64,000 nt of DNA from Minisyncoccia bacterium. Lineage in GTDB: Bacteria > Patescibacteriota > Minisyncoccia > Phycocordibacterales > UBA9973. A program made the position numbers and the translations under genes. Below, piece after piece: positions 5,738 to 39,495 of this stretch (position 1 is its first letter; each line of letters starts with the position of its first letter). The stretch covers positions 2,924 to 66,923 of the forward strand of contig JBBRTD010000002.1 of NCBI GenBank assembly GCA_038244685.1, given 5' to 3'. The notes beneath the pieces were generated by a model. The model was given only the letters and a program-made list of their open reading frames with translations, did not search any database and had not been told where the DNA came from.

Positions 5738-5740
5738 TAT

Positions 5741-20574: not shown

Positions 20575-21606
20575 ATGTATAAACTTGAAGAATATGTGGA
20601 TATTAAAGAGTACTCAACCCTAAAAGTTGGAGGAAAATTCCGCTACTTTGCAAAAGTTTCCTCTATAGAAGATATTATGATTATTTGCTCCATAGCCAAG
20701 AAGGATAAAAATAAGATTCTTATTTTGGGTGGGGGCTCTAATGTTGTTTTTTCGGATAGAATTTTAGATTTAATTGCTATAAAAATTGAGATCAAAGGCT
20801 TTAATATTATAAGGGAGGTCTCAGATTACTTAGATATAAAAGTAGGAGCAGGTGAGATTTGGGATAAAATAGTTGAAAAAACTGTAGATATGAATCTTTC
20901 TGGTCTTGAATCTCTGTCGGCAATTCCAGGTACGGTAGGAGCAAGCCCCGTGCAAAATATTGGAGCTTATGGTTCTGAAGTAAAAGATACGATTTTAGAA
21001 GTTGAAGTATTTGATATAGACAAAGGAACAATAAAAAATTTTACAAACGAAGAGTGTAAATTTGGATATAGAGATAGTGTTTTTAAAAATGATGCAAAAG
21101 GAAAATATATTATAACTGCTGTGACCTTCAGATTAGAAAAAAGGCTAGAGAAAAATTCTAAAGCTCTTAATTATCCAGGTGTTTTAAAATTTTTTGAAAA
21201 GAAAGGAGTATCTAATCCTGATTTAAGGCAAATTAGGGAGGCGATAATTAGTATTCGTAGCGAAAAGTTACCAAATCCAAAAGTATTACCTAATGTTGGG
21301 TCATTTTTTAAAAACCCAATAGTTTTAAACGAAGTAGCATATAAAATATTAGAAGAATTTCCTAATGCTAAATTTTTCCCATTAAAAGATGATCTCACAA
21401 AAATTCCGGCTGGTTGGCTTATAGAGAATGCTGGATTAAAAGGCGAGTCCTTTGGAAATGTTTCAGTGTATGACAAGAATGCTCTTGTCCTGATTAATAC
21501 AGACAATGCAACTTTTGAAGACATAATTTCTGCCCGTGATGAGATAATAAAAAAAGTGTTTGATAAATTTGGAATTATACTAGAGCAAGAACCAGAAGTA
21601 GTCTAA
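20575..21606 (+). CDS. murB: UDP-N-acetylenolpyruvoylglucosamine reductase MurB
   Basis: FAD-binding PCMH-type N-terminus (STLKVGG...ILGGGSNVVF) and MurB C-terminal domain. Confidence 0.85.
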   Translation: MYKLEEYVDIKEYSTLKVGGKFRYFAKVSSIEDIMIICSIAKKDKNKILILGGGSNVVFSDRILDLIAIKIEIKGFNIIREVSDYLDIKVGAGEIWDKIVEKTVDMNLSGLESLSAIPGTVGASPVQNIGAYGSEVKDTILEVEVFDIDKGTIKNFTNEECKFGYRDSVFKNDAKGKYIITAVTFRLEKRLEKNSKALNYPGVLKFFEKKGVSNPDLRQIREAIISIRSEKLPNPKVLPNVGSFFKNPIVLNEVAYKILEEFPNAKFFPLKDDLTKIPAGWLIENAGLKGESFGNVSVYDKNALVLINTDNATFEDIISARDEIIKKVFDKFGIILEQEPEVV

Positions 21607-21696
21607 TTGATTTTATACGGATTTCTAGTATACTATTCCTATTACATTGTCGGAGTGGCAATGGAATATTTTTAAAACACTAAGTGTGTTTTTGTT

Positions 21697-21778
21697 GCCG
21701 GAGTGGCGGAATTGGTATACGCGCGCGACTCAAAATCGCGTCTCGCAAGGGATGGAGGTTCAAGTCCTCTCTCCGGCA
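21697..21778 (+). tRNA. tRNA-Leu (anticodon CAA), long variable arm
   Basis: GCCGGAGTGGCGGAATTGGTATACGCGCGCGACTCAAAATCGCGTCTCGCAAGGGATGGAGGTTCAAGTCCTCTCTCCGGCA forms a class II cloverleaf with anticodon loop CTCAAAA. Confidence 0.85.
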
Positions 21779-21779
21779 C

Positions 21780-22913
21780 ATGCAGAATAAATCACTTTCT
21801 TATATAGAAATTTCAGAAGGTAACTTAATAAATAATATCAAGCAATTTAGAAGTTTATTGAAGAATAAAACTAAAATTGCCGCAGTTATAAAAGCTAATG
21901 CTTATGGTCATGGGGATAAGACTGTAGCAAAAATTGCGAGTCCTTATGTGGATTATTTCCAGGTAGATAGTATCGAAGAAGCAGAAAGGGTAAGAAGTAT
22001 TAGCAAAAAGCCAATCCTTATTTTTGGTTATTTAAACGATGACGGAGTAAGGAGATCTGTGAAAATCAATGCAATAATTTGCGCTTTCGATTTAATTAAT
22101 CTTTTAAAAATTAATCATACCGCGAAAATTTTAAAGAAAAAAATAAAAGTTCACTTGGCAATCGATTCATATTTAGGGAGAGAGGGTATAATGCCTAATC
22201 AAGTAGAGATAATAATAAATGAAATTAAAAATCTAGAAAATATAATCTTAGATGGTGTGTATTCTCACTTTGCGAATATTGAAGATACCATGAATTCAAC
22301 TCATGCCAATAGGCAAATTGAAGTTTATCACAACTGCGTTGAACTATTTAGAAAAAATGGTTTTGCAAATATTAATACTCATATCTCAGCGACTTCTGGT
22401 ATTCTTGTCTATGAAAAAGGTGAAAATTTGCATAATATTGTACGTCTTGGTATTGGACTTTATGGCATGTGGCCAAGTGAACATTTAGAGTACTTGAATA
22501 AAAAGAAAATAAATTTAAAGCCAATATTAAAATGGGTGACTCACGTAGCGCAAGTAAAGATAATTCCAGCCAATCATCCAATAGGATATGGGCTTACCTA
22601 TATTACAAAAAAGGTCACAAAAATAGCAGTTATACCCCAAGGTTACTTCGATGGATTAACTCGCTCTCTTTCAAATAACGGAGAATTTTTAATAAGAGGC
22701 AAAAAATCAAAGATATTAGGTAGAGTTGCTATGAATATGACTGTAGTTGATGTATCTCACATTAAAGGTGTTTTGCCTGATGATGAAGTTGTAATTATTG
22801 GTATACAGGGTAAGTCTAAAATTACGGCAGAAGAAGTTGCAAAAAGGTCAGATACAATAAACTATGAAATCACTACGAAAATAAGCGCCTTATTGCCTAG
22901 GGTTATAGTGTAA
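21780..22913 (+). CDS. alr: Alanine racemase
   Basis: PLP-lysine motif AVIKANAYGHG. The start is chosen at the Met just after the tRNA; the ORF track's 21684 start runs through the tRNA gene. Confidence 0.85.
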   Translation: MQNKSLSYIEISEGNLINNIKQFRSLLKNKTKIAAVIKANAYGHGDKTVAKIASPYVDYFQVDSIEEAERVRSISKKPILIFGYLNDDGVRRSVKINAIICAFDLINLLKINHTAKILKKKIKVHLAIDSYLGREGIMPNQVEIIINEIKNLENIILDGVYSHFANIEDTMNSTHANRQIEVYHNCVELFRKNGFANINTHISATSGILVYEKGENLHNIVRLGIGLYGMWPSEHLEYLNKKKINLKPILKWVTHVAQVKIIPANHPIGYGLTYITKKVTKIAVIPQGYFDGLTRSLSNNGEFLIRGKKSKILGRVAMNMTVVDVSHIKGVLPDDEVVIIGIQGKSKITAEEVAKRSDTINYEITTKISALLPRVIV

Positions 22914-26333: not shown

Positions 26334-26366
26334 AAAAACAGCCCCGCAATAGCAGGGCTTTTTTTA
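26334..26366. terminator. Bidirectional terminator hairpin (cagcccc gcaatag cagggc + T-run)
   Basis: Inverted repeat plus T-run between convergent genes. Confidence 0.55.
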
Positions 26367-27038
26367 TTTTGTTAGAACAATAACCTTAAGGCATTGTTCT
26401 CTTGTACCTTTTGGGTAAAAGTAGTTTTCTTCATCATTGCTTCCACCACCACCGCTAGCAGATTCTCCTTTTTTATTTCTGTATGTATATACAAAAGAAT
26501 CGGAGTCTGCTAACACTTTGGATACATTTTCTGGCACACTTAGTGTACTAATGCCTTCATTGTAGAAGACACAGATTTTAAGTGGAATTCCAAACTTAAG
26601 AGACCTCTTACTTTGGTAGGGATCTATATCTTTCGACATAAAAACGTAACCATCATATTTCGGTGCATTGTTTAAGTTTGGAAAGCTTTTTCTGAATTTG
26701 TAGACGAATACAAGAATTCTTCTTATTTCTACTTCGCTAAACATATTTGCTTCATATTGTTGTAAATCTGAAGTGATATATTTAGTTTTCAGTAGAATGT
26801 ATCTGAATTCATTTTTAAAATTAATAGGAACCAACCAAGAGGTTGAATCTTCTATTAATTCCTTTTCGCCGTACAGAATAGGAATCTCCTCAATCCCTGC
26901 TTCTTTACATGAGATAAACTTTTGCCCTAAAATTCTTTGGGCTTTTTCATTTGTCACACCTTGTCCGTGTGTTGCCTTCATTAGTAACAATAGAGCTGCT
27001 GCTAATATTAATGCAAATATAAAATTTTTTCTCCTCAT
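26364..27038 (-). CDS. Hypothetical secreted protein (signal peptide)
   Basis: N-terminal MRRKNFIFALILAAALLLLMKA signal peptide. Confidence 0.4.
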   Translation of the reverse strand: MRRKNFIFALILAAALLLLMKATHGQGVTNEKAQRILGQKFISCKEAGIEEIPILYGEKELIEDSTSWLVPINFKNEFRYILLKTKYITSDLQQYEANMFSEVEIRRILVFVYKFRKSFPNLNNAPKYDGYVFMSKDIDPYQSKRSLKFGIPLKICVFYNEGISTLSVPENVSKVLADSDSFVYTYRNKKGESASGGGGSNDEENYFYPKGTREQCLKVIVLTK

Positions 27039-27283
27039 AACCTTATGCCGCTCTTAACGGACCTTTTTAATGTACAATTTAATTTTTGTTGATTCTAGCA
27101 CAGATATACATATTTGTCAAAGTTAAATTTGCAAATTACTAAAGTCTTTTTGCATGTTAATTGGTATATATTAATTTATATATAATAGTAAATATTATTG
27201 ATTTATAATCATATTGTAGTCAATTATTAATTTATGTTAATAAACCACCTTGTGTTATATTTGTGGCTTGTTATCATTTAGAT

Positions 27284-27958
27284 ATGAGGGTCTTAATTAT
27301 CGAAGATGAAGAAATTTTGGCCAAGCTCGTTAAGAAAAGTCTTGAAAGTGAAGGATACGCAGTAGATTGCTTAACCGACGGAGAGTCTGGTCAAGATAGG
27401 ATTGAGTCGAGTCATAAGGACTACGACTTAATTATCATTGATTTAATGCTTCCTAAAAAATCAGGGAGTGAAGTGTGTTTTGAAGTAAGAAAATTAGGAA
27501 TCTCCACTCCTATATTAATACTTACTGCCAAGGTCGGAGTAGAGAGTAAGGTATCGCTACTTGATACTGGAGCTGATGATTATATGCAGAAGCCATTTGA
27601 GCTGTCTGAATTATTCGCTCGAATTAGAGCGTTAACTCGTAGACCTAGCATTGCTATTCCAAACGAACTCAAGGTGGGGAATCTTACTTTATCTTCAAGT
27701 ACAAAAAAAGTATTTAAAAATAAAAAAGAAATTACTCTAACTTTAAAAGAATTTAGACTTCTTGAATATTTAATGCGGCACCCTAATCGAGTCATCGAAA
27801 GGGTAGATTTGTCTGATAATATATGGGATTTTGATTACGATTCATTATCAAATATTATCGATGTATATATAAATAGATTAAGAGATAAGCTTGATAAAGA
27901 TAGAAAGAAAAAGCTGATTGAGACAGTTCGTGGCGTTGGTTATAAATTAAAAATTTAA
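27284..27958 (+). CDS. OmpR-family response regulator (receiver + winged-helix)
   Basis: Receiver domain with D-box (IIDLMLPKKSG) and K (LTAK), and a C-terminal winged-helix domain. The start is chosen at MRVLIIEDE. Confidence 0.85.
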   Translation: MRVLIIEDEEILAKLVKKSLESEGYAVDCLTDGESGQDRIESSHKDYDLIIIDLMLPKKSGSEVCFEVRKLGISTPILILTAKVGVESKVSLLDTGADDYMQKPFELSELFARIRALTRRPSIAIPNELKVGNLTLSSSTKKVFKNKKEITLTLKEFRLLEYLMRHPNRVIERVDLSDNIWDFDYDSLSNIIDVYINRLRDKLDKDRKKKLIETVRGVGYKLKI

Positions 27959-29091
27959 TTTTTCGGGATAGAAATAAAGAATGTAGTACCTTTATTTTCT
28001 TCAGATTTAAATGATATTTTATAGTTACTTTGTTCGATTAAATTTTTAACAAAATAAAGCCCGAGTCCTGAACCTTCAGTTTTAATGCTGAATACATTAT
28101 TAGCTCTGAATAGTTTTGTGAATATTTTAGGTTGATCTTTTTTAGGGATGCCGATACCATTATCTTTTATTTTTATAATTACATTCTTTTTGTTTTCTTC
28201 CACTCCAAATATTATTCCGCTACCTTTTGGTGAATATTTAATTGCATTTAGTAACAGGTTTTCTAGAATTATCTTCATAATCTTTCTATCTAAATTAATG
28301 ACAGGGAGATTTTTTTTGTAATCCTTTTTAAGGGAGATCTTTTTGTTTTTTAAATTGGCTTGCACCTCATGAATACTCTTCTCTATTATATCGAATAATT
28401 TAGTTGGTTCTTTGATTATGTGGAATCTGCCCATTTCTATTTGAGAAAAATCTAATATTTTCTCTATCATTTCTGCCATATCTTTTATTTCCATAAATAT
28501 GGTTTTTAAGTACTTCTTATTTTCTTTAGAAACGTCACCGACTATACCTCTTAGGAGCATCTCTGAGGCAAGTGAAATAGTAGAAAGTGGAGTTCTTAGT
28601 TCATGGGCTGCAAGAGAAATAAATTCATTCTTGGCCTTGTCTATTTCTTTTTCTTTTGTTATATCTTTTTCTATTGCTACAAAAAATTGAATCTCGCCGT
28701 TATTATCTAGCATTGGTGAAACTTTTATTTCAGCTTCATATAATTCTCCATTTTTTCTTTGGTTGGTTATTTTTCCGATAAAAATACTCTTTTTTTCTTT
28801 TATTGTATTCCAAAAATTTTCATAAAAAATCGATGGCATTTGTTTGCCCCATAGGGTTGGTGTCTTACCTATTATCTCTTCGTTTGTAAAGCCTGTAATC
28901 TTTTCTGAAGATTTATTAGCATATAATATATGTCCATTATTATCTGTGATTATAATGTGTGAAAAATCATTGTCTATAACAGAACGAAGCAATTTTAAAT
29001 CTCCATCTAAATTGTCTAATTTTCCGAAAGTGTCTGGGTTTCTAGATAAAGGTATATTTATAATGTCCTGTTTTATATTAATTTTTTTCAT
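27955..29091 (-). CDS. Cytoplasmic PAS-domain sensor histidine kinase
   Basis: PAS region (HIIITDNNGHILYANKSSEKITGFT), H-box AAHELRTPL, N-box LLNAIKYS, G-boxes DNGIGIP and GSGLGL. No TM segment. Confidence 0.85.
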   Translation of the reverse strand: MKKINIKQDIINIPLSRNPDTFGKLDNLDGDLKLLRSVIDNDFSHIIITDNNGHILYANKSSEKITGFTNEEIIGKTPTLWGKQMPSIFYENFWNTIKEKKSIFIGKITNQRKNGELYEAEIKVSPMLDNNGEIQFFVAIEKDITKEKEIDKAKNEFISLAAHELRTPLSTISLASEMLLRGIVGDVSKENKKYLKTIFMEIKDMAEMIEKILDFSQIEMGRFHIIKEPTKLFDIIEKSIHEVQANLKNKKISLKKDYKKNLPVINLDRKIMKIILENLLLNAIKYSPKGSGIIFGVEENKKNVIIKIKDNGIGIPKKDQPKIFTKLFRANNVFSIKTEGSGLGLYFVKNLIEQSNYKISFKSEENKGTTFFISIPKN

Positions 29092-29236: not shown

Positions 29237-30238
29237 ATGGAACAACTAAACGACAGTAAAATTAGTGTCATGGGATTAGTAATAATTACGATTATCGGGG
29301 TAATTTTTATTATTGGTTATTATTTTAAATATTTGAATAATAATCACAAGGAAGTATCTGCATTGATCGTTGATAACTCTGTTGATAAATATTTGTCCTT
29401 AATTTCTACTGAGAATATGCTATCTTCTGTTGGCATTCCAAATGCAACGAATAGTCCATTACTTTGGGGTGCATATGTTGGAGATGGTCAAAATGATTTA
29501 GCTGATTTTGAAAATTTAGTTGGGAAAAAAGTTAACTTGTATGCAGATTTTGAAAGCTGGGAAAATAGTTTTCCTTCGGGGCTTTTTTCTGCCGTTGGTC
29601 AATCTGGTAAAACTCTCATTATTTTCTGGGAACCAAATTTTGGATACGATAAGATAATTAATGGCGATTACGATGATTATATTAAGCAATTTGCTGTTGA
29701 TGCCAAGAAATACTCATACCCAATTATCTTAGTCCCTTTTGATGAAATGAATTTAAATGAAGAAGCTTGGGGTTATGGTCAAAATAATAATACTGCTTCT
29801 AAATTTATTACTGCCTGGAAGCATGTTCATGATTTATTTAAAGATACACCTAATGTAGATTTTGGCTTGGCTTATAATAGTGTTTCTATTCCAAATATTA
29901 AAGGTAATTTGTTTTCTGATTATTATCCAGGGAGTGATTATGTTGATTATATTGGTTTAGATGGTTTCAGTTTTAAAAATTTATGGAAATCATTTAAAGA
30001 TATTTTTGATGATCCAATGAATAAAATATCCTCATATGATAAACCAATAATTATTTTTTCATTAGCTTCTGAAGATAGCTCTCAAAAAGCATCATGGATA
30101 AGTGATGGGCTAGGTCAACATATCAAAACTTATAAAAATATTGCTGGTTGGGTTTGGTTTAATGAGGGAGGAGTGCCCAACTGGCAGGTTAATTCAGATC
30201 AAGAATCACTAAAAGCTTTTAGGTCGATTTTGCCATAA
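29237..30238 (+). CDS. Membrane-anchored glycoside hydrolase, clan GH-A-like (GH26/GH113 mannanase-like fold)
   Basis: N-terminal TM helix. IIFWEPNF motif resembles the strand-4 acid/base segment of clan GH-A. Aromatic-rich (beta/alpha)8-like pattern. The family assignment is tentative. Confidence 0.4.
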   Translation: MEQLNDSKISVMGLVIITIIGVIFIIGYYFKYLNNNHKEVSALIVDNSVDKYLSLISTENMLSSVGIPNATNSPLLWGAYVGDGQNDLADFENLVGKKVNLYADFESWENSFPSGLFSAVGQSGKTLIIFWEPNFGYDKIINGDYDDYIKQFAVDAKKYSYPIILVPFDEMNLNEEAWGYGQNNNTASKFITAWKHVHDLFKDTPNVDFGLAYNSVSIPNIKGNLFSDYYPGSDYVDYIGLDGFSFKNLWKSFKDIFDDPMNKISSYDKPIIIFSLASEDSSQKASWISDGLGQHIKTYKNIAGWVWFNEGGVPNWQVNSDQESLKAFRSILP

Positions 30239-30253
30239 TAAATATATAAAATT

Positions 30254-31276
30254 ATGAAAATATCACTATTAGTTCCGTGTTATAACGAAGAAAAGTCATT
30301 AGAGGCGTCTATTAAGTCCTGCTTAGATCAAACACGCCCCTTCGATGAATTAATATTTGTGAATGATTGCTCAAAGGATAGTTCACCAGAAATATTGTCT
30401 CGTTATTCTGGTTTTATCTATTCGTATAGGACTCCCAAAAACACTGGTAATAAAAGCAGTGCCCAAGAGTATGGCCTACAGTTTATTAATGGAGATATTG
30501 TTGTTATGACAGATGCAGATACTTTGCTTAGTCGGACTTTTGTTGAAGAAATAGAAAAAAGTTTTAGTGATTCACAGGTTGTTGCGGTTGCGGGGCGGGT
30601 TCAAAGTATTTCTTATAATTGGCTAACTTTATGCCGAGCTTATGAATATGCTATCGGACAGAATATTCATAAAGTTGCACAAGGATATATAAACTATATT
30701 TTTGTTATGCCAGGTGCCGCTAGTGCTTTTAGAGTTGATGCTTTCCGTAAAAATATTTCTTTTGATCATGACACTCTAACTGAGGATTTAGATTTCACTT
30801 ATAAATTACATGATCGTAATTTGAAAATTATTTATAATCCAAAAGCTATTTCTTACACTCAAGATCCTGCAGATTTAAAAAACTATATTAATCAGCTCAG
30901 GCGCTGGTTTGGGGGAGGATGGCAAAATTTACTTAAACACTACACCTCTGCTCCTTTGAATTTAATTATGGCATTTGAACTTTCTTTGCTTTATTTTGAA
31001 GGTTTAATCTTTTCTATTTTATTGTTTTTGATAATTATTATTAACACCTGGATGGCCTTAATGTTACTAATCGGATATTTAGGAATTGCGACATTACTTG
31101 GTGTTTGGATGGCCATAAAAGAGAAGAGGTGGACTTTAGCTATTGCTCCTTTCCCTTATATGATTTTAATTTTTATTAATGCTTATATTTATTTAGAACA
31201 ATTTATTAAGGAAGTAATTTTTAGAAGAAGAAATTTAATTTGGTTCAAGCCAGAACGCTTGGACCTAAAACATTAA
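30254..31276 (+). CDS. Processive family-2 glycosyltransferase (IcaA/PgaC/cellulose-synthase-like) with C-terminal TM helices
   Basis: GT-A N-terminus (LVPCYNEE), DAD motif (MTDADT), TED motif (LTEDLDF) and the Q(Q/R)xRW motif QLRRW, followed by 3-4 TM helices. Confidence 0.8.
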   Translation: MKISLLVPCYNEEKSLEASIKSCLDQTRPFDELIFVNDCSKDSSPEILSRYSGFIYSYRTPKNTGNKSSAQEYGLQFINGDIVVMTDADTLLSRTFVEEIEKSFSDSQVVAVAGRVQSISYNWLTLCRAYEYAIGQNIHKVAQGYINYIFVMPGAASAFRVDAFRKNISFDHDTLTEDLDFTYKLHDRNLKIIYNPKAISYTQDPADLKNYINQLRRWFGGGWQNLLKHYTSAPLNLIMAFELSLLYFEGLIFSILLFLIIIINTWMALMLLIGYLGIATLLGVWMAIKEKRWTLAIAPFPYMILIFINAYIYLEQFIKEVIFRRRNLIWFKPERLDLKH

Positions 31277-31280
31277 TTTT

Positions 31281-31550
31281 ATGATGACACCATTTATTGG
31301 GCTTTCGACATTTATTCATATTCTTTTAATTCTTATTTATAGGCTTTTTCACTTGAAACAGGGAAGTCACTTATTTATATATAAACATCGGTCGATTAAG
31401 GCTTTATTAGGATTATTCATTATTTTTGGTATGTTTAGTTTTATTTTTGTTTCCGCAGTTTTTATGTTGCACGCTAGTGTTACAGAAGAACATTCCTCGA
31501 TTCATATTATTGGTAATTATATAAATTCATTTAATTATTATGAGTCGTAG
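31281..31550 (+). CDS. Small 2-TM membrane protein (IcaD/PgaD-like position)
   Basis: 89 aa, two hydrophobic helices, immediately downstream of the GT2 gene. Confidence 0.4.
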   Translation: MMTPFIGLSTFIHILLILIYRLFHLKQGSHLFIYKHRSIKALLGLFIIFGMFSFIFVSAVFMLHASVTEEHSSIHIIGNYINSFNYYES

Positions 31551-31583
31551 AAATATTATAAAAAGATATTAAATATATATTAT

Positions 31584-34130
31584 ATGAAAAACAAAAAATT
31601 TATTTCATTTTTAATTGTTATGTTTGTGTTTATATTTGCAAATGTTTACTCAGTTCGTACTTCTTATGCCTTGGCTCCAATCGATCCACCAAATTTAATT
31701 CAGAATTCATCAGTTGAAGTTGCGAGTGGTGGTAATCCTAGTTTATGGTTACAGTCTGGCTTCGGGGTAAATAACCGTACTTTTTCTTATCCAGTTACTG
31801 GGGTTAGTGGAGGTTCGGCTATTAATGTAAAAATTTCTTCTTATACAAGCGGTGATGCCAAATGGTCTTTCCCTGAAGTTCCAATTTTGTCTAATCGTAG
31901 TTATATTTATACCGATAATTATATGTCTGACATCTCAACAGTTTTGGTCGCTGAGTACTTTGATGCAAGCCATAATCATTTATCTTACGTAGGGTTTATT
32001 CCAGTTCCAGCCTCTCCACTAAATTCTTGGGGGACAAGCAGTACAACATTTATTACTCCTGTCGGAGCTGCTTATATGACGGTATATCATTTAATTAATA
32101 ATGTTGGCTCTTTGACGACGGATAATTTTAGTCTCACGGAAGTGCCATTACCAGAAGCTTTTGATAAGGGTTTTGTTTCTTTGACTTTTGATGATGGTTT
32201 TCTTTCTCAATATCAAAATGCTTTACCAGAATTAAGTGCTGCAAATATTAAAGGGACATTCTATGTGGTCTCTCATGCTATCTCTGGTCTTTCTATTAGT
32301 AATTCATCTTTAGAGGAGGCAGATAGTTCTGCTCTTCCTTTGGACGCTCCGCTAGATTGGACTTTCTCTGGTGGGGTAAATACGATATCTACTTATCCTG
32401 TTGCAGGACATAGCGGGCAAGGGGCTTTCGCTAGTTCATTAGCTATCGACACAAATGCCGCCTGGGCCTTTAAGCCTATCTCTGTTATTAACGACTCTGT
32501 TTATTCTTTTAGTGAGTGGTATAAAAGTACAACTAATTCAGACTTGGTTGCAATAATTAATAAAACAGATGGCTCGACAATACAAGCAGATATAACAGAT
32601 TTAGTAGGGAATACTATCGGTAGCAGTGTCAGCTTACCTTCGACCAATAATGTATGGACTCAGGTTAATGCATATTTCTATGTTCCACTTGATGCCAAAA
32701 GTGTTACGGTGGTGAACCAATTAAAAGGTATTGGTGATTTAGTTATAGATGATGTAACTCTAAGTGAGCCAAATTATATGAATTCCATTCAATTAAAATC
32801 CCTACAAACAGCTGGGCAAGAAATTGGTGGACATACGCAATCACATAAAGATTTACCTTCTATATCTTTAGCTGATGCAGAAAAAGAGGTAAGTGGCGGA
32901 CTTCATGATTTATTAACAAATGGAATAGATCCAGTCTTACCTTTTGATTATCCGTATGGAAATTATAATCAGAATATACAACAAATTGTCGAGAGCTCTG
33001 GTTTTACTTCTGGCCGAACTGTTGCTCCTGGTTTTAACGGTAAAGATACAAATAAATTTGCATTACTTTCTCAGTCAGTAAATGCAGATACACCTCTCTC
33101 TACAGTTGAAGCTTGGATAAATCAGGCAATCAGTGATCACACTTGGCTTATTTTAGTTTTCCATGAAATACAAAGTGATTTAACGAAGGCTCCATTTGGT
33201 ACGACGCCAAGTAATTTACAGTTAATAGTTGATTATATTAAAAATAATAATATTGAAACTCAAACTATTAGTGGAGGTATTAGCTTAATGAATCAAACTT
33301 TGCCGCCAGAAGTTACTTTGAATAGTATTGCTATTACGACACCCGCAACTAAGCTCTCTTACACTGTAGGTGATAGTCTAGACATAGGAGGACTTATTGT
33401 AACGGGAACATATAGTGATAATTCCACAAAAATAGAAACTTTAACATCTAGTAATGTAACCGGTTTTAATAGTGCAGTTCCTGCTGTTGATCAAGTTCTA
33501 ACTATTACAATTGGTGGCAAGACTACAACTTACAAAATAAATATTCTTGCTGTTGTTCCGCCTCCAGTTGTCTTGAATAATATATCTATTACAAATCCAG
33601 CAAGTAAGCTCGTTTATAAGGTAGGTGAATTGCTTGATATTACTGGTCTTGTTATTACAGGAACATATAGTGATAACTCAACTAAGGTTGAAACATTAGG
33701 AACTGAAAGTATAACTGGATTTAATAGTTCAAGTCCTGTAAACAGTCAGATATTAACTATTACAATAAATGGTAAAACTACAACTTACACTGTTAACATA
33801 ATTAAAGATGAAGTTGTGAATAATCATGGGTCATATTCAGGTTCGTTTTTACCAAAGGATTTGAAGCTAGTCATTAAAGACTTGCCAATTGGGAAAGTTC
33901 TTGGTGCTGAAAGTTATAGATTCAATAAAGATTTAAAATTTGGTATGAAGAATGCTAGTGTGAAGGAGTTGCAATCAAAATTTAAAAAAGAAGGTGTTTA
34001 TAAAGGTCCAATTACGGGATACTTCGGAGCCTTAACAAAAGAAGTCGTTAAAAAATACCAACAAAAGAACGAATTACCTCCAACTGGATTTGTCGGACCT
34101 CTAACAAGGGAGATATTGAATACTATATAA
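31584..34130 (+). CDS. Secreted polysaccharide deacetylase (CE4/NodB) with an inserted beta-rich domain, two Ig-like (Big_3-type) repeats and a C-terminal peptidoglycan-binding (PG_binding_1) domain
   Basis: Signal peptide. NodB motifs TFDDG, HTQSHKDL and LPFDYPYG. Two ~85-aa repeats (ITTPATKLSYTVGDSLDIGGLIVTGTYSDNSTKIETL / ITNPASKLVYKVGELLDITGLVITGTYSDNSTKVETL). C-terminus ...SVKELQSKFKKEGVYKGPITGYFGALTKEVVKKYQQKNELPPTGFVGPLT. Confidence 0.8.
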   Translation: MKNKKFISFLIVMFVFIFANVYSVRTSYALAPIDPPNLIQNSSVEVASGGNPSLWLQSGFGVNNRTFSYPVTGVSGGSAINVKISSYTSGDAKWSFPEVPILSNRSYIYTDNYMSDISTVLVAEYFDASHNHLSYVGFIPVPASPLNSWGTSSTTFITPVGAAYMTVYHLINNVGSLTTDNFSLTEVPLPEAFDKGFVSLTFDDGFLSQYQNALPELSAANIKGTFYVVSHAISGLSISNSSLEEADSSALPLDAPLDWTFSGGVNTISTYPVAGHSGQGAFASSLAIDTNAAWAFKPISVINDSVYSFSEWYKSTTNSDLVAIINKTDGSTIQADITDLVGNTIGSSVSLPSTNNVWTQVNAYFYVPLDAKSVTVVNQLKGIGDLVIDDVTLSEPNYMNSIQLKSLQTAGQEIGGHTQSHKDLPSISLADAEKEVSGGLHDLLTNGIDPVLPFDYPYGNYNQNIQQIVESSGFTSGRTVAPGFNGKDTNKFALLSQSVNADTPLSTVEAWINQAISDHTWLILVFHEIQSDLTKAPFGTTPSNLQLIVDYIKNNNIETQTISGGISLMNQTLPPEVTLNSIAITTPATKLSYTVGDSLDIGGLIVTGTYSDNSTKIETLTSSNVTGFNSAVPAVDQVLTITIGGKTTTYKINILAVVPPPVVLNNISITNPASKLVYKVGELLDITGLVITGTYSDNSTKVETLGTESITGFNSSSPVNSQILTITINGKTTTYTVNIIKDEVVNNHGSYSGSFLPKDLKLVIKDLPIGKVLGAESYRFNKDLKFGMKNASVKELQSKFKKEGVYKGPITGYFGALTKEVVKKYQQKNELPPTGFVGPLTREILNTI

Positions 34131-34233: not shown

Positions 34234-34488
34234 ATGAAAACCTTTAGTGAAAAAGTTTATGATGTCGTTCGAAATATTCCCAAAGGGAAGTTTTTGACAT
34301 ACAAAGAAGTTGCCAAGAAGGCAGGAAGTGAGAAGGCTAGTCGGGCAGTTGGAAATATTTTGCATAAAAATTTTGATCCGAAAATTCCATGCCACAGAGT
34401 CATCCGCTCTGATGGTAAATTTGGAGGGTACAATAGGGGGAGTCAAAATAAAAAAGAATTATTAAGGAAGGAAGGAGTAGTTTTTTAA
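34234..34488 (+). CDS. Methylated-DNA-protein-cysteine methyltransferase, C-terminal DNA-binding/active-site domain only (84 aa)
   Basis: PCHRVI active-site motif with a helix-turn-helix context (FLTYKEVAKKAG...RAVGNIL). Confidence 0.75.
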   Translation: MKTFSEKVYDVVRNIPKGKFLTYKEVAKKAGSEKASRAVGNILHKNFDPKIPCHRVIRSDGKFGGYNRGSQNKKELLRKEGVVF

Positions 34489-34826: not shown

Positions 34827-36884
34827 TTGGAAAATAGCCCTTTTTATGTCATTATTAAGGAATATATGGAATCATCAAAAAATAAAAAGACATCTGTAAA
34901 GTCATTAAAAAGTAATGTTAATGAAAGAGGGTTACGTACTGTGGTAAAAAATCTTCTCAAGCAAGATAAAAGACTTTGGACTTCGGAAGGTAAGTTGATT
35001 GAAAATAAATTGATTGAATTTGTACAAAAAGATGATGAAAATATTATTAAACTTCTATTAAGTGATTCCTTAACAAAAGATGCTTTTTTCCAAAAAATTT
35101 CTTCAATTTTTGTATTTAAAAAAGATGACTTTATTAACTTTGAAACGATGAGTGAGTTTTTGAATGGTTCTTATACTAATTATAGTAAACATATAGGATT
35201 GGCAAATAATTACTCTTTATTAAAAAATGCCGGTGAAGTAGTTCTGAATTTTCCATACAAGGATTGTTTTTTAGAAGGAGGGCAAGAAAAAGTAAGTGAA
35301 GGGAGAGATGAAATATTTTACAATAAAATTCTTGCAAGAGAAGAAATAAATAGACTTGAAGAAGAAAAAGTTTTTACGAACTGGATTAAATATACTGAAA
35401 AAGGGGGGAAAAAGGTGGATTCATTTGACCATAAAAAAGACAATCTTATTTTAAGAGGAAATAATTTATTAGCTTTATATTCATTGCTTCCAAAATATAG
35501 AGGACAAATAAATTTAATTTATATTGACCCACCATACAATACTGGAACAGATGATTTTAATTACAATGATAATTTTAATCATTCTAGTTGGCTAGTATTT
35601 ATGAAGAATAGATTGGAGGTAGCAAAAAAGTTATTAAGAGATGACGGTGTTATTTTTGTTCAGTGTGACGACCACGAACAAGCTTATTTGAAGGTTGTAA
35701 TGGATGAAATTTTTAATGGTGGATTTATAAATAGTATTGCTGTAAAAATGAGTGAGTTGTCTGGGACAAAAATGGCTCATTATGATAAAAAATTACCTAA
35801 AATAAAAGAATATTTATTAGTATATAAAAAAGTAACGTTTAAATTAAGAGATGTTAGAATAATAAAAACTGAGTGGGATGACGAATATAATTTGTATCTC
35901 GAGAATTTTGATGATAATTTATTAGATTTAATTACCGAGTCGGATGAAAATAAAATTGATGAAGTAAATAAAAAACTATTAAATGTAAAAATTTTAGGGA
36001 TAAAAGAAGCATTTAATAAATATAAAAATAAAAATGAAGATTTTGATGATTTTAGATTTAGGAATATAAACTTTATTGTTAGAACATCGCCATCATCCAG
36101 TGTAAAAAAAATTGCTGATATTCTTAATATCAAAAATCAAATTGTTTATGCATTGCTTTCAAAAAGAGACAAAAATATTATTATAATTCGTACAGATTAT
36201 AATAAAGCAGTAAAAGACCCAAGAATACAGATTGTCTTTGCTCGAGATTCTTTTGAACAAAAAATAGGCGATATGTGGACAGATATAAATACTACAGGTT
36301 TACATACTGAGGGGGGAGTTACTTTAGAAGGAGGAAAAAAACCCGAGAAATTACTTAACAGAATTATTGAAATGAGCACAAAAATTGGTGATATTGTTTT
36401 AGATTATCATTTAGGAAGTGGAACGACCTGTGCTGTTGCTCATAAGCTGGGTCGTAAATATATAGGTATTGAGCAATTAGACTATGGAAAAGATGACTCA
36501 GTTATAAGGTTGAACAATGTTATTAAGGGAGACAAATCAGGCATATCAGGGTTAGCTGATTGGAAAGGAGGAGGGTCATTTGTTTATGCTGAACTTGCAC
36601 AATGGAATGAAGAATATATCCAAGAAATAAAGAAAGCCAAAACAGTTAAAGATTTGACTAAAATCTATGAAAAAATGATTAAAGAAGCATTCTTTGTTTA
36701 TACTTTTGACCAATCAAAATGGAATAATAAAAAATTTGAAGAGCTTACAATTGATAACCAAAAGAAAATTCTTTTCGAGCTTCTTAATATGAATCATTTA
36801 TATATAAATTATAAAGATATAGAGGACGCGACTTATAAAATTTCTAAAGAAGATATAAAACTCAATAAAAATTTCTATGAGTAG
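34827..36884 (+). CDS. mod: Type III restriction-modification system methyltransferase (Mod), N6-adenine, beta-class
   Basis: Motif IV IYIDPPYNTG occurs before motif I (DYHLGSGTTCAVAHKLGRKYIGIE), with a target-recognition region in between. The 8-bp overlap with the downstream res gene is typical of Type III mod-res operons. Confidence 0.85.
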   Translation: MENSPFYVIIKEYMESSKNKKTSVKSLKSNVNERGLRTVVKNLLKQDKRLWTSEGKLIENKLIEFVQKDDENIIKLLLSDSLTKDAFFQKISSIFVFKKDDFINFETMSEFLNGSYTNYSKHIGLANNYSLLKNAGEVVLNFPYKDCFLEGGQEKVSEGRDEIFYNKILAREEINRLEEEKVFTNWIKYTEKGGKKVDSFDHKKDNLILRGNNLLALYSLLPKYRGQINLIYIDPPYNTGTDDFNYNDNFNHSSWLVFMKNRLEVAKKLLRDDGVIFVQCDDHEQAYLKVVMDEIFNGGFINSIAVKMSELSGTKMAHYDKKLPKIKEYLLVYKKVTFKLRDVRIIKTEWDDEYNLYLENFDDNLLDLITESDENKIDEVNKKLLNVKILGIKEAFNKYKNKNEDFDDFRFRNINFIVRTSPSSSVKKIADILNIKNQIVYALLSKRDKNIIIIRTDYNKAVKDPRIQIVFARDSFEQKIGDMWTDINTTGLHTEGGVTLEGGKKPEKLLNRIIEMSTKIGDIVLDYHLGSGTTCAVAHKLGRKYIGIEQLDYGKDDSVIRLNNVIKGDKSGISGLADWKGGGSFVYAELAQWNEEYIQEIKKAKTVKDLTKIYEKMIKEAFFVYTFDQSKWNNKKFEELTIDNQKKILFELLNMNHLYINYKDIEDATYKISKEDIKLNKNFYE

Positions 36885-39495
36885 CACTTCTTTATATCAA
36901 AAATATGATATTCGTGTAGAAGATGGGGTTATAGATGTTAGTTCTATACCATCTTTTATTTCAGATAATCTCCACTCTCGTGTTGTTTTACGACCTTATC
37001 AAGAAGAGGCACTTTCTCGTTTTATTTATTATTTTGAAAAAGATAAAAATAAACTTACTCCGGTACATCTACTTTTCAATATGGCCACAGGGACTGGTAA
37101 AACAATTATAATGTCTAGTGTAATGCTTCATCTTTATACAAAAGGATATCGAAATTTTGTATTTTTTGTTGATAAGGACAATATTGTACAAAAAACAATT
37201 GAAAATTTTACAGACAACACAAGCCCTAAATATAGTTTTTCACCATCAATAGTAATAGATGGAAAACGTGTTTTGGTTCGTAAGGTAGAGAATTTTTCAG
37301 ATAGTGATAATAAAGCAATAAATATCAAATTTAGTACTCTTGCAGGGCTACACAGTGAAATTACCTTTCCAAAAGAAGAAGGGTTATCTATGGACGATTT
37401 TAAGCTCAGAAAAACTGTATTTTTATCAGATGAAGCCCATCACGTTAATGCTTCAACAAAAAAGAAAGAATTAGATGAAGAGGAAAAATCTTGGGAATAT
37501 ACTGTAATGAAATTACTTAATTCAAATCTTGAAAATGTTTTATTGGAGTTTACTGCAACAATCGATGAAAGACACGAAAAAATAGTTGAGAAATATTCTG
37601 ATAAAATAATTTTTAAATATGACCTAAAAAGATATATAGCTGATAAATATTCTAAAGATATTTTCTTATATAAAACTCCAGAGGGGATAGATGACCGTAT
37701 TTTACATGCTCTTATTCTCTCTCAGTATCGTCGTAAGTTAGCGGGGAAATATGGGATGTCCTTTAAACCAGTTGTACTTATAAAATCTAAAACAAAAAAA
37801 GAAAGTGAAAATACTGAAATACTTTTCTATAATCTATTACAAAAATTGAAAGTAAATGATATAGAACGCATAGAAAAACAAGTAAAAGTAAATATAGATA
37901 ATAAGGTAGCAGTTAAAGCTTTTGATTTTTTTAAAAAAGAAGGTATTTCTTTTGCTGAACTTATTAAAGAACTCCAGATTGAATTTTCAAAAGAAAGAAG
38001 AATACAAATGAATGATGATAGTCAAAAAGTTGCGCAGTCTAAGCTCTTGAATTCTCTTGAAGAAGAGTCTAACAAAATTCGTGTTATTTTTCAGGTAAAA
38101 AAACTTGATGAGGGTTGGGATGTATTAAATCTTTTTGATATTGTCAGAGCATATGAGACACGAGATACTGGTACTATAACTACGTCCGAAGCTCAGCTTG
38201 TGGGAAGAGGGGCGAGATATTATCCATTTATTATTGAACCAAGCCAAGAAAAAGATAAAAGAAAATATGACGAAGAGCCAGAAAATGAACTTAGGGTTTT
38301 AGAACAACTTTATTATCATTGTCAGAATGACCATAGATATATCTCTGAAATCAAAAATGCTCTTCAAAAAACCGGAATAGATTTAGATAATAAAAAGATG
38401 ATTGAACTTAAATTAAAAGATTCTTTCAAAAAATCTTTATTTTATACCCAAGCATTTGTATATACTAATAAGCAACAAAAAAAAGATAGGAAAAATATTA
38501 AATCATTAAAAGATATAGATTTGGACAAATTAACACATACAGATTCTCTTTCAACTGGAGTATCTGGAGTAGAAGGTATTTTTGCAAATAGTACCGAAAA
38601 GACCTCATCAAATAATGTTAAAATAGTTAGCGAAAAAATTTCTGTAAAAGAAATACCTATTCACATAACGAGAACTGCTATTGATACTTTTCCATTTTTT
38701 GATTTTGCTAATTTAAAAACATATTTACCCAACATAAAAAGTCGTGATGAATTTATCACATCTGACTCATATGCCGGAAACATTCGCATTGAAATTGATG
38801 GCCCAGAAGACAGGATAAAGAATATAAAAAATGATAATGAATATTTATACTCAATTTTAATAAGAAAAGTATTTGAAGATTTGAAAAATAAGATTGTATA
38901 TAACTCTTTTGAATATGAAGGGACTGATGAATTTATGCCTTACGAGATTAACAAACTTATTAAAGATAAGATTATTCAAATTGAAGTAAATAATGAAAGT
39001 GATAAAGAAAACGGCAAAGCTATGGGTGGAACTGAAACAGAGATTCATCTTGATTTATCAAATATTGATTGGTATTCACATACTGAGAATTATGGAACAT
39101 CTGAAGAAAAGTACCTCATAAAGGCAATATTGGGATTTGTAGATTCTATCAAGAGTAAATACGACAATGTTTATCTTATTCGTAACGAGAGACAAGTAAA
39201 GATATTTGATACCAAGGGGCGTGCTATTGAACCTGATTTCTTGTTATATACTATAAAAAAGAATCAGAAAGACACCTCTTACTATCAATTATTTATTGAA
39301 CCAAAGGGAGCACACTTATTGAAAGAAGATTCTTGGAAGGAGGATTTTTTGAAAGGATTAAACAAAAAATATAAAGGAAAATCTAACTTAATTGAAACAC
39401 CAGAATATTATATATTTGGTTTGCCTTTCTTTAATGAACAAAAAACAAAACGAGAATTTGAAACTGATTTAAAAAAGAAACTCCAGCTAAAATAA
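36877..39495 (+). CDS. res: Type III restriction enzyme Res subunit (SF2 helicase + C-terminal endonuclease)
   Basis: Walker A MATGTGKT, DEAH box LSDEAHH, helicase motif VI QLVGRGAR. 872 aa. Translationally coupled to mod. Confidence 0.85.
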   Translation: MSSTSLYQKYDIRVEDGVIDVSSIPSFISDNLHSRVVLRPYQEEALSRFIYYFEKDKNKLTPVHLLFNMATGTGKTIIMSSVMLHLYTKGYRNFVFFVDKDNIVQKTIENFTDNTSPKYSFSPSIVIDGKRVLVRKVENFSDSDNKAINIKFSTLAGLHSEITFPKEEGLSMDDFKLRKTVFLSDEAHHVNASTKKKELDEEEKSWEYTVMKLLNSNLENVLLEFTATIDERHEKIVEKYSDKIIFKYDLKRYIADKYSKDIFLYKTPEGIDDRILHALILSQYRRKLAGKYGMSFKPVVLIKSKTKKESENTEILFYNLLQKLKVNDIERIEKQVKVNIDNKVAVKAFDFFKKEGISFAELIKELQIEFSKERRIQMNDDSQKVAQSKLLNSLEEESNKIRVIFQVKKLDEGWDVLNLFDIVRAYETRDTGTITTSEAQLVGRGARYYPFIIEPSQEKDKRKYDEEPENELRVLEQLYYHCQNDHRYISEIKNALQKTGIDLDNKKMIELKLKDSFKKSLFYTQAFVYTNKQQKKDRKNIKSLKDIDLDKLTHTDSLSTGVSGVEGIFANSTEKTSSNNVKIVSEKISVKEIPIHITRTAIDTFPFFDFANLKTYLPNIKSRDEFITSDSYAGNIRIEIDGPEDRIKNIKNDNEYLYSILIRKVFEDLKNKIVYNSFEYEGTDEFMPYEINKLIKDKIIQIEVNNESDKENGKAMGGTETEIHLDLSNIDWYSHTENYGTSEEKYLIKAILGFVDSIKSKYDNVYLIRNERQVKIFDTKGRAIEPDFLLYTIKKNQKDTSYYQLFIEPKGAHLLKEDSWKEDFLKGLNKKYKGKSNLIETPEYYIFGLPFFNEQKTKREFETDLKKKLQLK

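Follow-up and report, generated by a model that had tools for sequence, protein, structure and literature searches.

A conserved four-gene locus of Patescibacteria that may encode a variant synthase-dependent exopolysaccharide system

Patescibacteria (the candidate phyla radiation, CPR) account for a large share of bacterial diversity. Many are believed to live in attachment to other cells, and very few structures on their surfaces are understood. A 64,000-nucleotide stretch of DNA from a Minisyncoccia bacterium (assembly GCA_038244685.1, contig JBBRTD010000002.1, positions 2,924 to 66,923 of the forward strand), analysed here as a whole and referred to as the window, contains four packed genes at 29237-34130 that raise the question of what polymer such a cell might place on its surface, and with what machinery. 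The genes encode a relative of family GH26 glycoside hydrolases, a family GT2 glycosyltransferase, an 89-residue membrane protein and a family CE4 deacetylase. A preliminary description, made from the sequence alone, had read them as a module resembling the ica and pga systems that make poly-N-acetylglucosamine (PNAG). The part of that claim that stands is a synthase-type system in the gene order icaA-icaD-icaB; membership of the pga/ica families does not stand, either for the glycosyltransferase, its small partner and the deacetylase or for the hydrolase. The best reading of the predicted proteins is a variant of synthase-dependent exopolysaccharide system that is characteristic of Patescibacteria. 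Its product is probably a partly deacetylated, wall-associated surface glycan, presumably a beta-linked poly-N-acetylhexosamine (poly-HexNAc).

The four open reading frames (ORFs) of the preliminary description, with their motifs and domains, were all recovered. They lie on the same strand in tight, operon-like succession, separated in the ORF list by gaps of 15, 4 and 33 nucleotides (nt):

29237-30238, + strand: GH26-like hydrolase, 333 amino acids (aa)
30254-31276, + strand: GT2 glycosyltransferase, 340 aa
31281-31550, + strand: small protein with two transmembrane (TM) segments, 89 aa
31584-34130, + strand: CE4 deacetylase, 848 aa

Relatives of the locus were collected by scanning one genome per species; 140 were confirmed, the best 80 loci were kept, and their ORFs were called and searched with the window proteins. 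Nearly all of these loci come from Patescibacteria, including Parcubacteria/Paceibacteria lineages, Woese- and Shapirobacteria, Peregrini- and Peribacteria, and the Falkow- and Magasanik- groups, with a few metagenome-assembled genomes labelled otherwise, which makes the earlier suggestion of a putative episymbiont a reasonable one. Co-occurrence was counted in the 41 Patescibacteria loci that extend 6 kb or more to either side, where the small protein is present in 40, the CE4 catalytic domain in 37, the GH26-like protein in 33 and all four in 31. The GT2, small protein and CE4 genes, in this order and on the same strand, form the constant core; the hydrolase gene lies either directly upstream on the same strand, as in the window, or downstream on the opposite strand. 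The four genes are thus a conserved unit, and the module is real and probably functional. No description of it was found in the searchable literature, whose incomplete coverage makes this weak evidence of novelty.

What the module polymerizes is best approached through the GT2 protein, whose motifs and membrane segments are as follows, with conservation taken from an alignment of 23 diverse homologues:

30512-30520, + strand: DxD motif, D87-A-D89, invariant
30779-30787, + strand: TED motif, T176-E177-D178, E177 and D178 invariant, aligned to the TED of PgaC
30893-30907, + strand: QxxRW motif, Q214-L-R-R-W218 (aa 214-218), Q214, R216, R217 and W218 invariant
30956-31195, + strand: C-terminal TM helices, three or possibly four, aa 235-314, from hydropathy

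Pfam assigns the protein to Glycos_transf_2 (E 2e-26), with Chitin_synth_2 also above its cutoff and no match to Cellulose_synt. The TED motif holds the catalytic base in processive GT2 enzymes. The preliminary description had recognized a processive enzyme from its QLRRW; DxD, TED and QxRRW are invariant across the homologues, and the protein does not fall with the non-processive dolichol- or undecaprenyl-phosphate enzymes that lack a conserved QxxRW. By its motifs, therefore, it is a processive-type synthase. Its best curated family in NCBIfam is PgaC_IcaA (TIGR03937; 125.1 bits, E 3e-36, against an equivalog cutoff of 422.3), trailed by XrtG-associated glycosyltransferases, MftF, NodC (48 bits) and CelA (27.6 bits). 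The same ranking is found throughout the family: PgaC_IcaA is the top match of 23/23 members (best E 2e-42), all below the equivalog cutoff; the next family reaches about 1e-25, NodC 1e-16 and CelA 7e-8. Direct comparison with Escherichia coli PgaC gave 31% identity over 267 aa (BLASTP, E 4e-29) and an hhalign probability of 99.7%. More than 1,000 homologues were found at E ≤ 1e-10; the best 120 are 60-89% identical to the window protein over its full length, and those that are named belong to Paceibacterota, Falkowbacteria, Magasanikbacteria and similar groups. Because PgaC/IcaA is by far the nearest characterized family, the donor is most likely UDP-N-acetylglucosamine (UDP-GlcNAc). The window also encodes MurA, MurB and MurJ (Pfam scans), which implies that peptidoglycan is made and that UDP-GlcNAc must be available.

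The membrane architecture of the synthase is distinct from that of PgaC. Hydropathy finds hydrophobic stretches only at aa 235-289 (two helices) and aa 294-314, so that the cytoplasmic catalytic domain begins at residue 1 with no N-terminal TM helices; residues 1-75 of PgaC, which form its N-terminal TM hairpin, and positions 1-45 of the PgaC_IcaA model have no counterpart.

The Chitin_synth_2 match raises the possibility of a chitin- or chitosan-like polymer, in which beta-1,4-linked GlcNAc is made and then deacetylated in the pattern of NodC/NodB or of chitin synthase and chitin deacetylase. Homologues with precomputed Chitin_synth_1 matches, the detection of NodC in 23/23 GT2 members, the chitin deacetylases and PgdA among the best structural matches of the CE4 domain (see below), and the beta-1,4 bonds cut by CtLic26A, the nearest relative of the hydrolase, all agree with this. 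The margin of PgaC_IcaA over NodC, however, is about 75 bits for the window protein and exceeds 25 orders of magnitude in best E-value, and the TED motif is that of PgaC and BcsA, whereas NodC, chitin synthases and hyaluronan synthases have GEDR or GDDR. Moreover, Streptomyces MatB is an example of a PgdA/NodB-like CE4 domain partnering a beta-1,6 synthase (PMC5972031). A chitin-like product is accordingly rated unlikely; beta-1,6 PNAG as the specific product is possible, but less likely than not.

The small protein encoded next was taken in the preliminary description for a counterpart of IcaD or PgaD. Its two hydrophobic segments, evident from hydropathy, and its gene position support the parallel; its sequence and its predicted topology do not. 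The protein has no Pfam or NCBIfam match, and the idea of a diverged PgaD was rejected when BLASTP against E. coli PgaD returned no similarity at all. It nonetheless belongs to a family: a hidden Markov model iterated from the first phmmer matches places a member right after the GT2 stop codon in 75/82 loci. The start is mostly within about 50 nt of that stop, with a minority of called fragments 106-144 nt downstream. Family members share an N-terminal TPFxGLSxxxHL motif, a central loop rich in Lys and Arg, and a second TM helix. The public annotation of the identical contig has no gene call for the 89-aa ORF (31281-31550 of the window; 1130-1438 in locus L001), whose exact sequence is absent from a collection of 15 billion proteins, despite the roughly 75 related loci that carry the family. 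The small protein thus marks an annotation gap, missed by gene calling on this contig and covered by no family model.

In eight loci (L042, L045, L046, L049, L055, L058, L077 and L081) the partner domain is the N-terminus of the CE4 protein, so that the small protein is linked to the deacetylase by gene fusion; the L081 protein has a clean TM hairpin that runs directly into the first beta-sandwich of the region containing the carbohydrate-binding module (CBM) and CE4. The positively charged loop, together with the fusions to an extracellular CE4, suggests a topology with both ends outside and the loop in the cytoplasm. The C-terminus of PgaD is cytoplasmic.

The remaining seven fusion loci encode giant proteins of 1,200 to more than 2,400 aa that start with the partner TM domain, at about 9045-9052 of the locus and, in L049, at 7047. 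Those of L042, L049 and L077 have up to five CBM-like repeats ahead of a CE4 domain with an inserted CBM. Only CBM-like repeats are seen in L045, L046, L055 and L058; the L045 and L058 proteins run off the end of the locus, and in L046 the CE4 is encoded downstream by an ORF of its own. The hairpin of these giant proteins is followed by additional hydrophobic segments, which leaves their topology uncertain.

The CE4 protein is built from the following parts:

31584-31664, + strand: signal peptide or membrane anchor, aa 1-27 (hydropathy 3-27; helix 2-25 in the AlphaFold2 model)
31689-32141, + strand: CBM-like beta-sandwich 1, aa ~36-186 (AlphaFold2 strands; Foldseek; PF02018 in homologues)
32151-32288, + strand: CE4 catalytic part one, aa 190-235 (Pfam, alignment and spliced-domain search)
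32184-32198, + strand: TFDDG motif, aa 201-205 (alignment)
32295-32768, + strand: CBM-like beta-sandwich 2, aa ~238-395, between CE4 motifs 1 and 2 (AlphaFold2)
32772-33293, + strand: CE4 catalytic part two, aa 397-570, with R478, W521 and H527 (65-sequence alignment)
32832-32846, + strand: HTQSH motif, aa 417-421 (alignment)
33312-33803, + strand: two Big_3 Ig-like repeats, aa ~577-740 (Pfam; PDB 4fdw, E 6e-13)
33951-34118, + strand: PG_binding_1 domain, aa 790-845 (Pfam, E 2.5e-15)

Pfam finds Polysacc_deac_1 (PF01522) in two stretches (57.6 bits against a cutoff of 23.1), and the AlphaFold2 model of aa 1-580 (pLDDT 94.1) accounts for the split: an N-terminal helix (2-25) is followed by a sandwich (~40-186), a first set of CE4 strands and helix (197-228), a second sandwich (~240-394) and the rest of the CE4 barrel (401-569). 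Both sandwiches match modules of the CBM22, CBM4 and CBM16 type by Foldseek, and PF02018 is detected in homologues. As a result of the inserted sandwich, 216 aa separate the FDD and HxxxH motifs in the window protein. Roughly 30% of the family has a spacing of about 205-216 aa and about half a spacing of 55-59 aa, with intermediate values in the rest; since the long spacing recurs so often, the insertion is a recurrent variant of the enzyme.

The catalytic residues are retained. D203 and D204 occur in 28/28 aligned sequences, with xFDDG in most of the remainder; H417, H421, W521 and H527 are invariant in 65 sequences, and R478 is present in 60 of them. The TFDDG and HTQSH motifs reported previously are therefore part of a complete set, comprising the Asp-His-His metal triad and the catalytic Asp and His. 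When the catalytic domain was spliced, with the insert removed, its PDB matches were chitin deacetylases from fungi and bacteria, together with PgdA and an acetylxylan esterase (E 4e-7 to 1e-3). In NCBIfam the spliced domain is nearest to HfsH (81 bits, with almost the whole model aligned and a cutoff of 400), with 29.5 bits for PgaB (TIGR03938, cutoff 322) and 18.3 bits for IcaB (TIGR03933, cutoff 248). Assignment as a PgaB-type enzyme was rejected, as BLASTP to PgaB aligns the TFDDG region alone.

The conserved core of the deacetylase is its first ~570 residues. The C-terminal tails vary and include Big_3, PG_binding_1, FN3, cadherin-like, HYR and other domains; the Big_3 repeats are limited to close relatives, and PG_binding_1 is found in the CE4 or hydrolase protein of a minority of the related loci. 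By this distribution the Big_3/PG_binding_1 tail is lineage-specific and lies outside the core. The two Big_3 repeats and the PG_binding_1 domain had been noted previously as a sign of tethering to the cell wall: the domains are there and a wall location is indicated, but they are no core feature of the system. The signal or anchor helix, together with PG_binding_1, indicates that the CE4 domain is extracytoplasmic.

If GT2 and CE4 point to an amino-sugar polymer, the fourth protein poses a different question, namely what a hydrolase without its nucleophile does in a biosynthetic locus. Its features are:

29252-29341, + strand: TM anchor, an N-terminal helix, aa 6-35
aa 36-70, + strand: linker of low confidence in the AlphaFold2 model
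29447-30235, + strand: catalytic-type (beta/alpha)8 domain, aa 71-333 (Pfam, AlphaFold2)
29744-29746, + strand: codon of Glu170, aligned to the acid/base Glu109 of CtLic26A, conserved
30059-30061, + strand: codon of Ser275, at the position of the CtLic26A nucleophile Glu222, Ser throughout the clade

The Pfam match to Glyco_hydro_26 (PF02156) is weak (26 bits against a cutoff of 20.2). The best PDB match by phmmer is the Clostridium thermocellum lichenase CtLic26A (E 3e-34), and others are mannanases and beta-1,3-xylanases. An AlphaFold2 model built from 69 homologues (pLDDT 90.5) superposes on CtLic26A in Foldseek with a TM-score of 0.89, a root-mean-square deviation of 2.0 Å and 31% identity. 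What had been described as a TM-anchored hydrolase of clan GH-A is thus placed in GH26 by Pfam and by fold, complete with its N-terminal anchor helix; the loss of the nucleophile had been missed, as had the sandwich inserted into CE4, the lack of N-terminal TM helices in GT2, the wide conservation of the module and the absence of the two-component pair from its conserved core. Glu222 of CtLic26A is identified as the nucleophile because Gln occupies that position in the sequence of the 2cip Michaelis complex.

The change is not confined to the window. Of 49 locus homologues, 48 keep E170 and 48 have Ser at position 275; E170 is also retained in 157/169 representative domains and is invariant in a family alignment. 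When 1.84 billion cluster representatives were searched with a profile, 2,059 proteins scored at E ≤ 1e-30. The best 150 of these contain 114 domains with Ser, so that the Ser clade has at least this many representative domains, together with 43 domains of lower score that have the Glu of a canonical KPxxIAETAS. Two further positions change with the nucleophile: where CtLic26A has R105, 93% of the Glu clade has Arg and the Ser clade has Ala, Val, Ile or Ser, and where it has Y185, Tyr predominates in the Glu clade (81%) and Phe in the Ser clade (97%). The other cleft residues are conserved between the clades. A shifted nucleophile at E279 was considered and rejected, since the residue is unconserved and is Ala in most of the 49 locus homologues. 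Judged from these alignments, the nucleophile side of the active site has been remodelled in a coordinated way across a large clade, and the substitution is no error.

The simplest account of the lost enzymic nucleophile would be that the substrate has taken over its role. In GH18, GH20 and GH84 enzymes the acetamido group of the substrate acts as the nucleophile, and a catalytically active GH26-like protein might, speculatively, use the 2-acetamido group in the same way, which would fit a HexNAc polymer. A transglycosylating role could also be envisaged. In its most ambitious form, the proposal is that the Ser clade is functional. It would then be the first hydrolase in GH26 and clan GH-A to cut HexNAc polymers by substrate assistance, through an oxazoline intermediate, or else a natural transglycosylase of the glycosynthase-like kind that reworks the glycan or links it to the wall; with GT2, an adaptor whose two ends lie outside and the CBM-inserted CE4, it would make up a CPR-wide machine for a surface glycan used in host attachment. 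This is possible but doubtful.

Relatives of the hydrolase are also found in other settings. Some carry PG_binding_1 or SH3 domains. On a contig of ENA ERZ27237050 (1-9887; locus L085), canonical Glu-bearing GH26 relatives, one of them with CW_binding_2, lie in an unrelated polysaccharide cluster that encodes a 504-aa processive-type GT2, a PMT_2 protein, a flippase and a CE4 protein. This indicates that the GH26 branch is associated with biosynthetic loci beyond the CPR.

The GH26 fold also bears on the possibility of a polymer without amino sugars, such as a beta-glucan, mixed-linkage glucan, mannan or xylan, the CE4 protein then being an O-acetyl esterase or acting on peptidoglycan. The nearest solved relative of the hydrolase is a beta-1,3-1,4-glucanase and its other PDB matches are mannanases and beta-1,3-xylanases; acetylxylan esterases belong to CE4 and appear among the PDB matches of the deacetylase; and L085 shows canonical GH26 relatives alongside GT2 in another polysaccharide cluster. 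A canonical glucanase or mannanase, however, needs the nucleophile Glu, which is lost here along with its supporting residues. The GT2 ranking favours GlcNAc polymerases (27.6 bits for CelA and no Pfam Cellulose_synt match), and the top CE4 matches are de-N-acetylases. Such a product is considered quite unlikely. A paper on the mixed-linkage glucan synthase of Romboutsia, followed as a lead, makes no mention of GH26.

A second possibility that the hydrolase and deacetylase bring up is that neither processes the GT2 product and both instead attack the peptidoglycan, PNAG or chitin of a host wall or matrix in an episymbiotic or predatory manner, with the adjacency of GT2 incidental or regulatory. 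PG_binding_1 and SH3 domains on CE4 or hydrolase proteins would suit this role, the multiple CBM-like modules resemble those of degradative enzymes, and published statements hold that CPR bacteria may consume PNAG made by other bacteria. Against this, GT2, small protein and CE4 adjoin in the same order in most loci, the membrane protein that follows GT2 is fused to CE4 in 8 loci, and one would expect the nucleophile to be retained in a degradative hydrolase. Such a role is therefore held to be very unlikely.

The preferred reading, that the module both makes and deacetylates a HexNAc-containing surface polymer, is on balance favoured, and a pathway can be proposed for it. The cytoplasmic GT2 domain would polymerize a UDP-sugar processively, UDP-GlcNAc being the likeliest. 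The chain might leave through a channel formed by the three or four C-terminal TM helices of GT2 and the two helices of the partner, whose ends would face outward and whose C-terminus would recruit the CE4 protein, in some lineages by covalent linkage. The CBM-like sandwiches, including the one wedged into the catalytic domain, may grip the emerging chain while it is partly de-N-acetylated, to give a cationic, partly deacetylated glycan. The membrane-anchored GH26-like protein might then trim, release or remodel the polymer, a role played in other systems by BcsZ, the PgaB C-terminal domain, PelA and PslG; if catalytic, it would do so, speculatively, by the substrate-assisted route through the 2-acetamido group. 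Where CE4 or the hydrolase has peptidoglycan-binding or SH3 domains, as in a minority of relatives, these would place the enzymes at the cell wall. These domains and the N-terminal helices show the predicted extracellular enzymes to be membrane- or wall-tethered.

Several points weigh against this reading. The donor sugar and linkage are putative, with GT2 scoring far below the PgaC_IcaA equivalog cutoff, and completion of the channel by the small protein is purely conjectural. CE4 enzymes also include O-acetyl esterases. The hydrolase is missing from the vicinity of 8/41 fully flanked loci, and it could have a non-catalytic, lectin-like binding role. Substrate-assisted enzymes usually polarize the acetamido group with a carboxylate, and the residue ahead of E170 varies among His, Asp, Ser and Glu in the 49 locus homologues, leaving no obvious conserved residue for that task. 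Finally, we know of no characterized GH26 enzyme active on HexNAc polymers, the familiar activities being those of mannanase, lichenase and beta-1,3-xylanase.

Compactness, strong conservation and a predictable chemistry make the module an expressible candidate for a surface or adhesion glycan of CPR bacteria. It also raises the questions of what a GH26 protein does without its nucleophile, how a processive GT2 without N-terminal TM helices forms a channel, and whether the two-TM protein couples the synthase to the deacetylase.

With regard to the genomic context, the convergent response regulator and PAS histidine kinase that had been reported immediately upstream were confirmed by Pfam. Close relatives of the regulator lie directly upstream of GT2 in only 3/80 other loci, or about 7/80 when weaker regulator or kinase matches in the flanks are included, and the two-component pair was accordingly rejected as a core part of the module. 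The relevant features are:

27263-27958, + strand: OmpR-type response regulator (Pfam)
27955-29091, - strand: soluble PAS-HisKA-HATPase histidine kinase (Pfam), convergent with the regulator
L051, 1249-1920: regulator homologue directly upstream of GT2 (E 1e-79)
L071, 6178-6852: regulator homologue directly upstream of GT2 (E 2e-74)
L062, 5577-7322: weaker regulator homologue directly upstream of GT2 (E 1.5e-13)

The two-component system may regulate the module in this lineage. The kinase and hydrolase genes diverge from an AT-rich spacer of 145 bp, and a promoter and terminator scan gave counts no higher than the shuffled background. Pfam scans of the flanking ORFs recovered the response regulator, the histidine kinase, an MGMT-like protein and a type III restriction-modification system, with no PgaA- or IcaC-like gene adjoining the module; the sole TPR protein in a wider scan of the window (48316-50667) is unrelated. 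No Pfam match to PilZ or GGDEF/EAL was found in the four proteins or the scanned neighbours, in general scans that included no search aimed at cyclic di-GMP (c-di-GMP) receptors.

Other genes of the window are of separate interest. Directly after the module, an 84-aa protein (34234-34488, +) has only the DNA-binding domain of MGMT, as in alkyltransferase-like proteins, and is followed by the Mod (34827-36884) and Res (36877-39495) genes of the type III restriction-modification pair (+). A MurA homologue of the EPSP_synthase fold (19023-20537, -) has an N-terminal HTH_3 DNA-binding domain, an unusual fusion, and is divergent from MurB (20575-21606). Two VirD4/TraG/TrwB-like coupling-protein ATPases are encoded close together (10020-11459 and 13039-15243, +), the second with a treble-clef zinc finger and followed by a protein with a lamin-tail domain (15264-16712). 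At 64-4242 (+), a 1392-aa protein with Calx-beta, FN3 and multiple domains of the purple-acid-phosphatase N-terminal type is likely a large surface protein, and a MacB/FtsX-type ABC pair follows it (4385-6946). A GTG-start ORF (21684-22913, +) overlaps tRNA-Leu (21697-21779) at its 5′ end, and its true start is probably further downstream. No Pfam family was found for the ORFs at 26364-27038 (-; 224 aa, with a signal-like N-terminus) and 55416-57008 (+; 530 aa).

The module can finally be set against systems of known function, of which some resemble single components. Among curated families the CE4 catalytic domain is nearest to Caulobacter HfsH, which acts on the GlcNAc-containing adhesive holdfast polysaccharide; the score of 81 bits falls well short of the 400-bit cutoff. 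HfsH is a small enzyme with one domain, from a Wzy-type pathway, whereas the module enzyme is predicted to be extracellular, multidomain and linked to a synthase. CtLic26A (GH26; PDB 2bvd, 2cip and 2v3g) has the same fold, acid/base Glu and most cleft residues as the GH26-like protein. It differs from the Ser clade in having Glu222 in place of Ser, R105 in place of small or hydrophobic residues and Y185 in place of Phe, and it is a cellulosomal degradative enzyme, whereas the window protein is membrane-anchored and encoded in a biosynthetic operon.

Other comparisons concern whole loci. In the Bcs, Pel, alginate and Listeria Pss systems, too, a single locus generally brings a membrane synthase together with a glycosidase and a modifying enzyme that acts outside the cytoplasm. 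The window module, in contrast, is a minimal set of four genes with no BcsB-type co-polymerase or TPR protein/porin and, in the general scans, no recognizable c-di-GMP receptor, and its accessory proteins belong to different families.

Closer are the pgaABCD operon of E. coli and icaADBC of Staphylococcus, and the locus might be a true orthologue of these that has diverged only through the long evolutionary distance of the CPR. It shares with them a processive GT2 with the D, D, TED and QxxRW motifs for which PgaC_IcaA is the nearest curated family, a small two-TM protein encoded directly after the synthase, a CE4 de-N-acetylase placed outside the membrane in the order icaA-icaD-icaB, and a glycosidase activity, which in pga resides in the PgaB C-terminal domain. 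The differences run through every component, however. The GT2 lacks the N-terminal TM hairpin, and the equivalog cutoffs are missed widely (125 against 422 bits for GT2, 29.5 against 322 for PgaB and 18.3 against 248 for IcaB). The partner is unrelated to PgaD, with a predicted topology of both termini outside rather than the cytoplasmic C-terminus of PgaD. The CE4 protein is not of the PgaB/IcaB type and has CBM-like modules, including the one that interrupts its catalytic domain. The hydrolase is encoded apart, as a nucleophile-less GH26-like protein that belongs to neither GH153 nor GH20. No PgaA porin or IcaC was found in the scanned flanks and window, and no c-di-GMP element in the general scans. 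By these family-defining comparisons the module lies outside the pga/ica families, and simple divergence from a true orthologue is highly improbable.

The system to which the module is most readily compared is MatAB of Streptomyces. MatB joins a PgaC-like GT2 by a TM helix to a canonical (PgdA/NodB-like) CE4 domain and makes PNAG, and MatA, an accessory protein without known domains, is required (PMC5972031). Compared by description, the two systems share a PgaC-like GT2 coupled through a membrane segment to an extracellular PgdA/NodB-like CE4, an envelope of Gram-positive type and the involvement of a domain-less accessory protein, a feature of MatA. The coupling differs in form, MatB being one GT2-TM-CE4 polypeptide while the module uses a separate two-TM protein that is fused to CE4 only in some lineages; the GH26-like gene, moreover, belongs to the window module. 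By analogy, the module would work in the manner of the PNAG systems, Streptomyces MatAB being the closer parallel.

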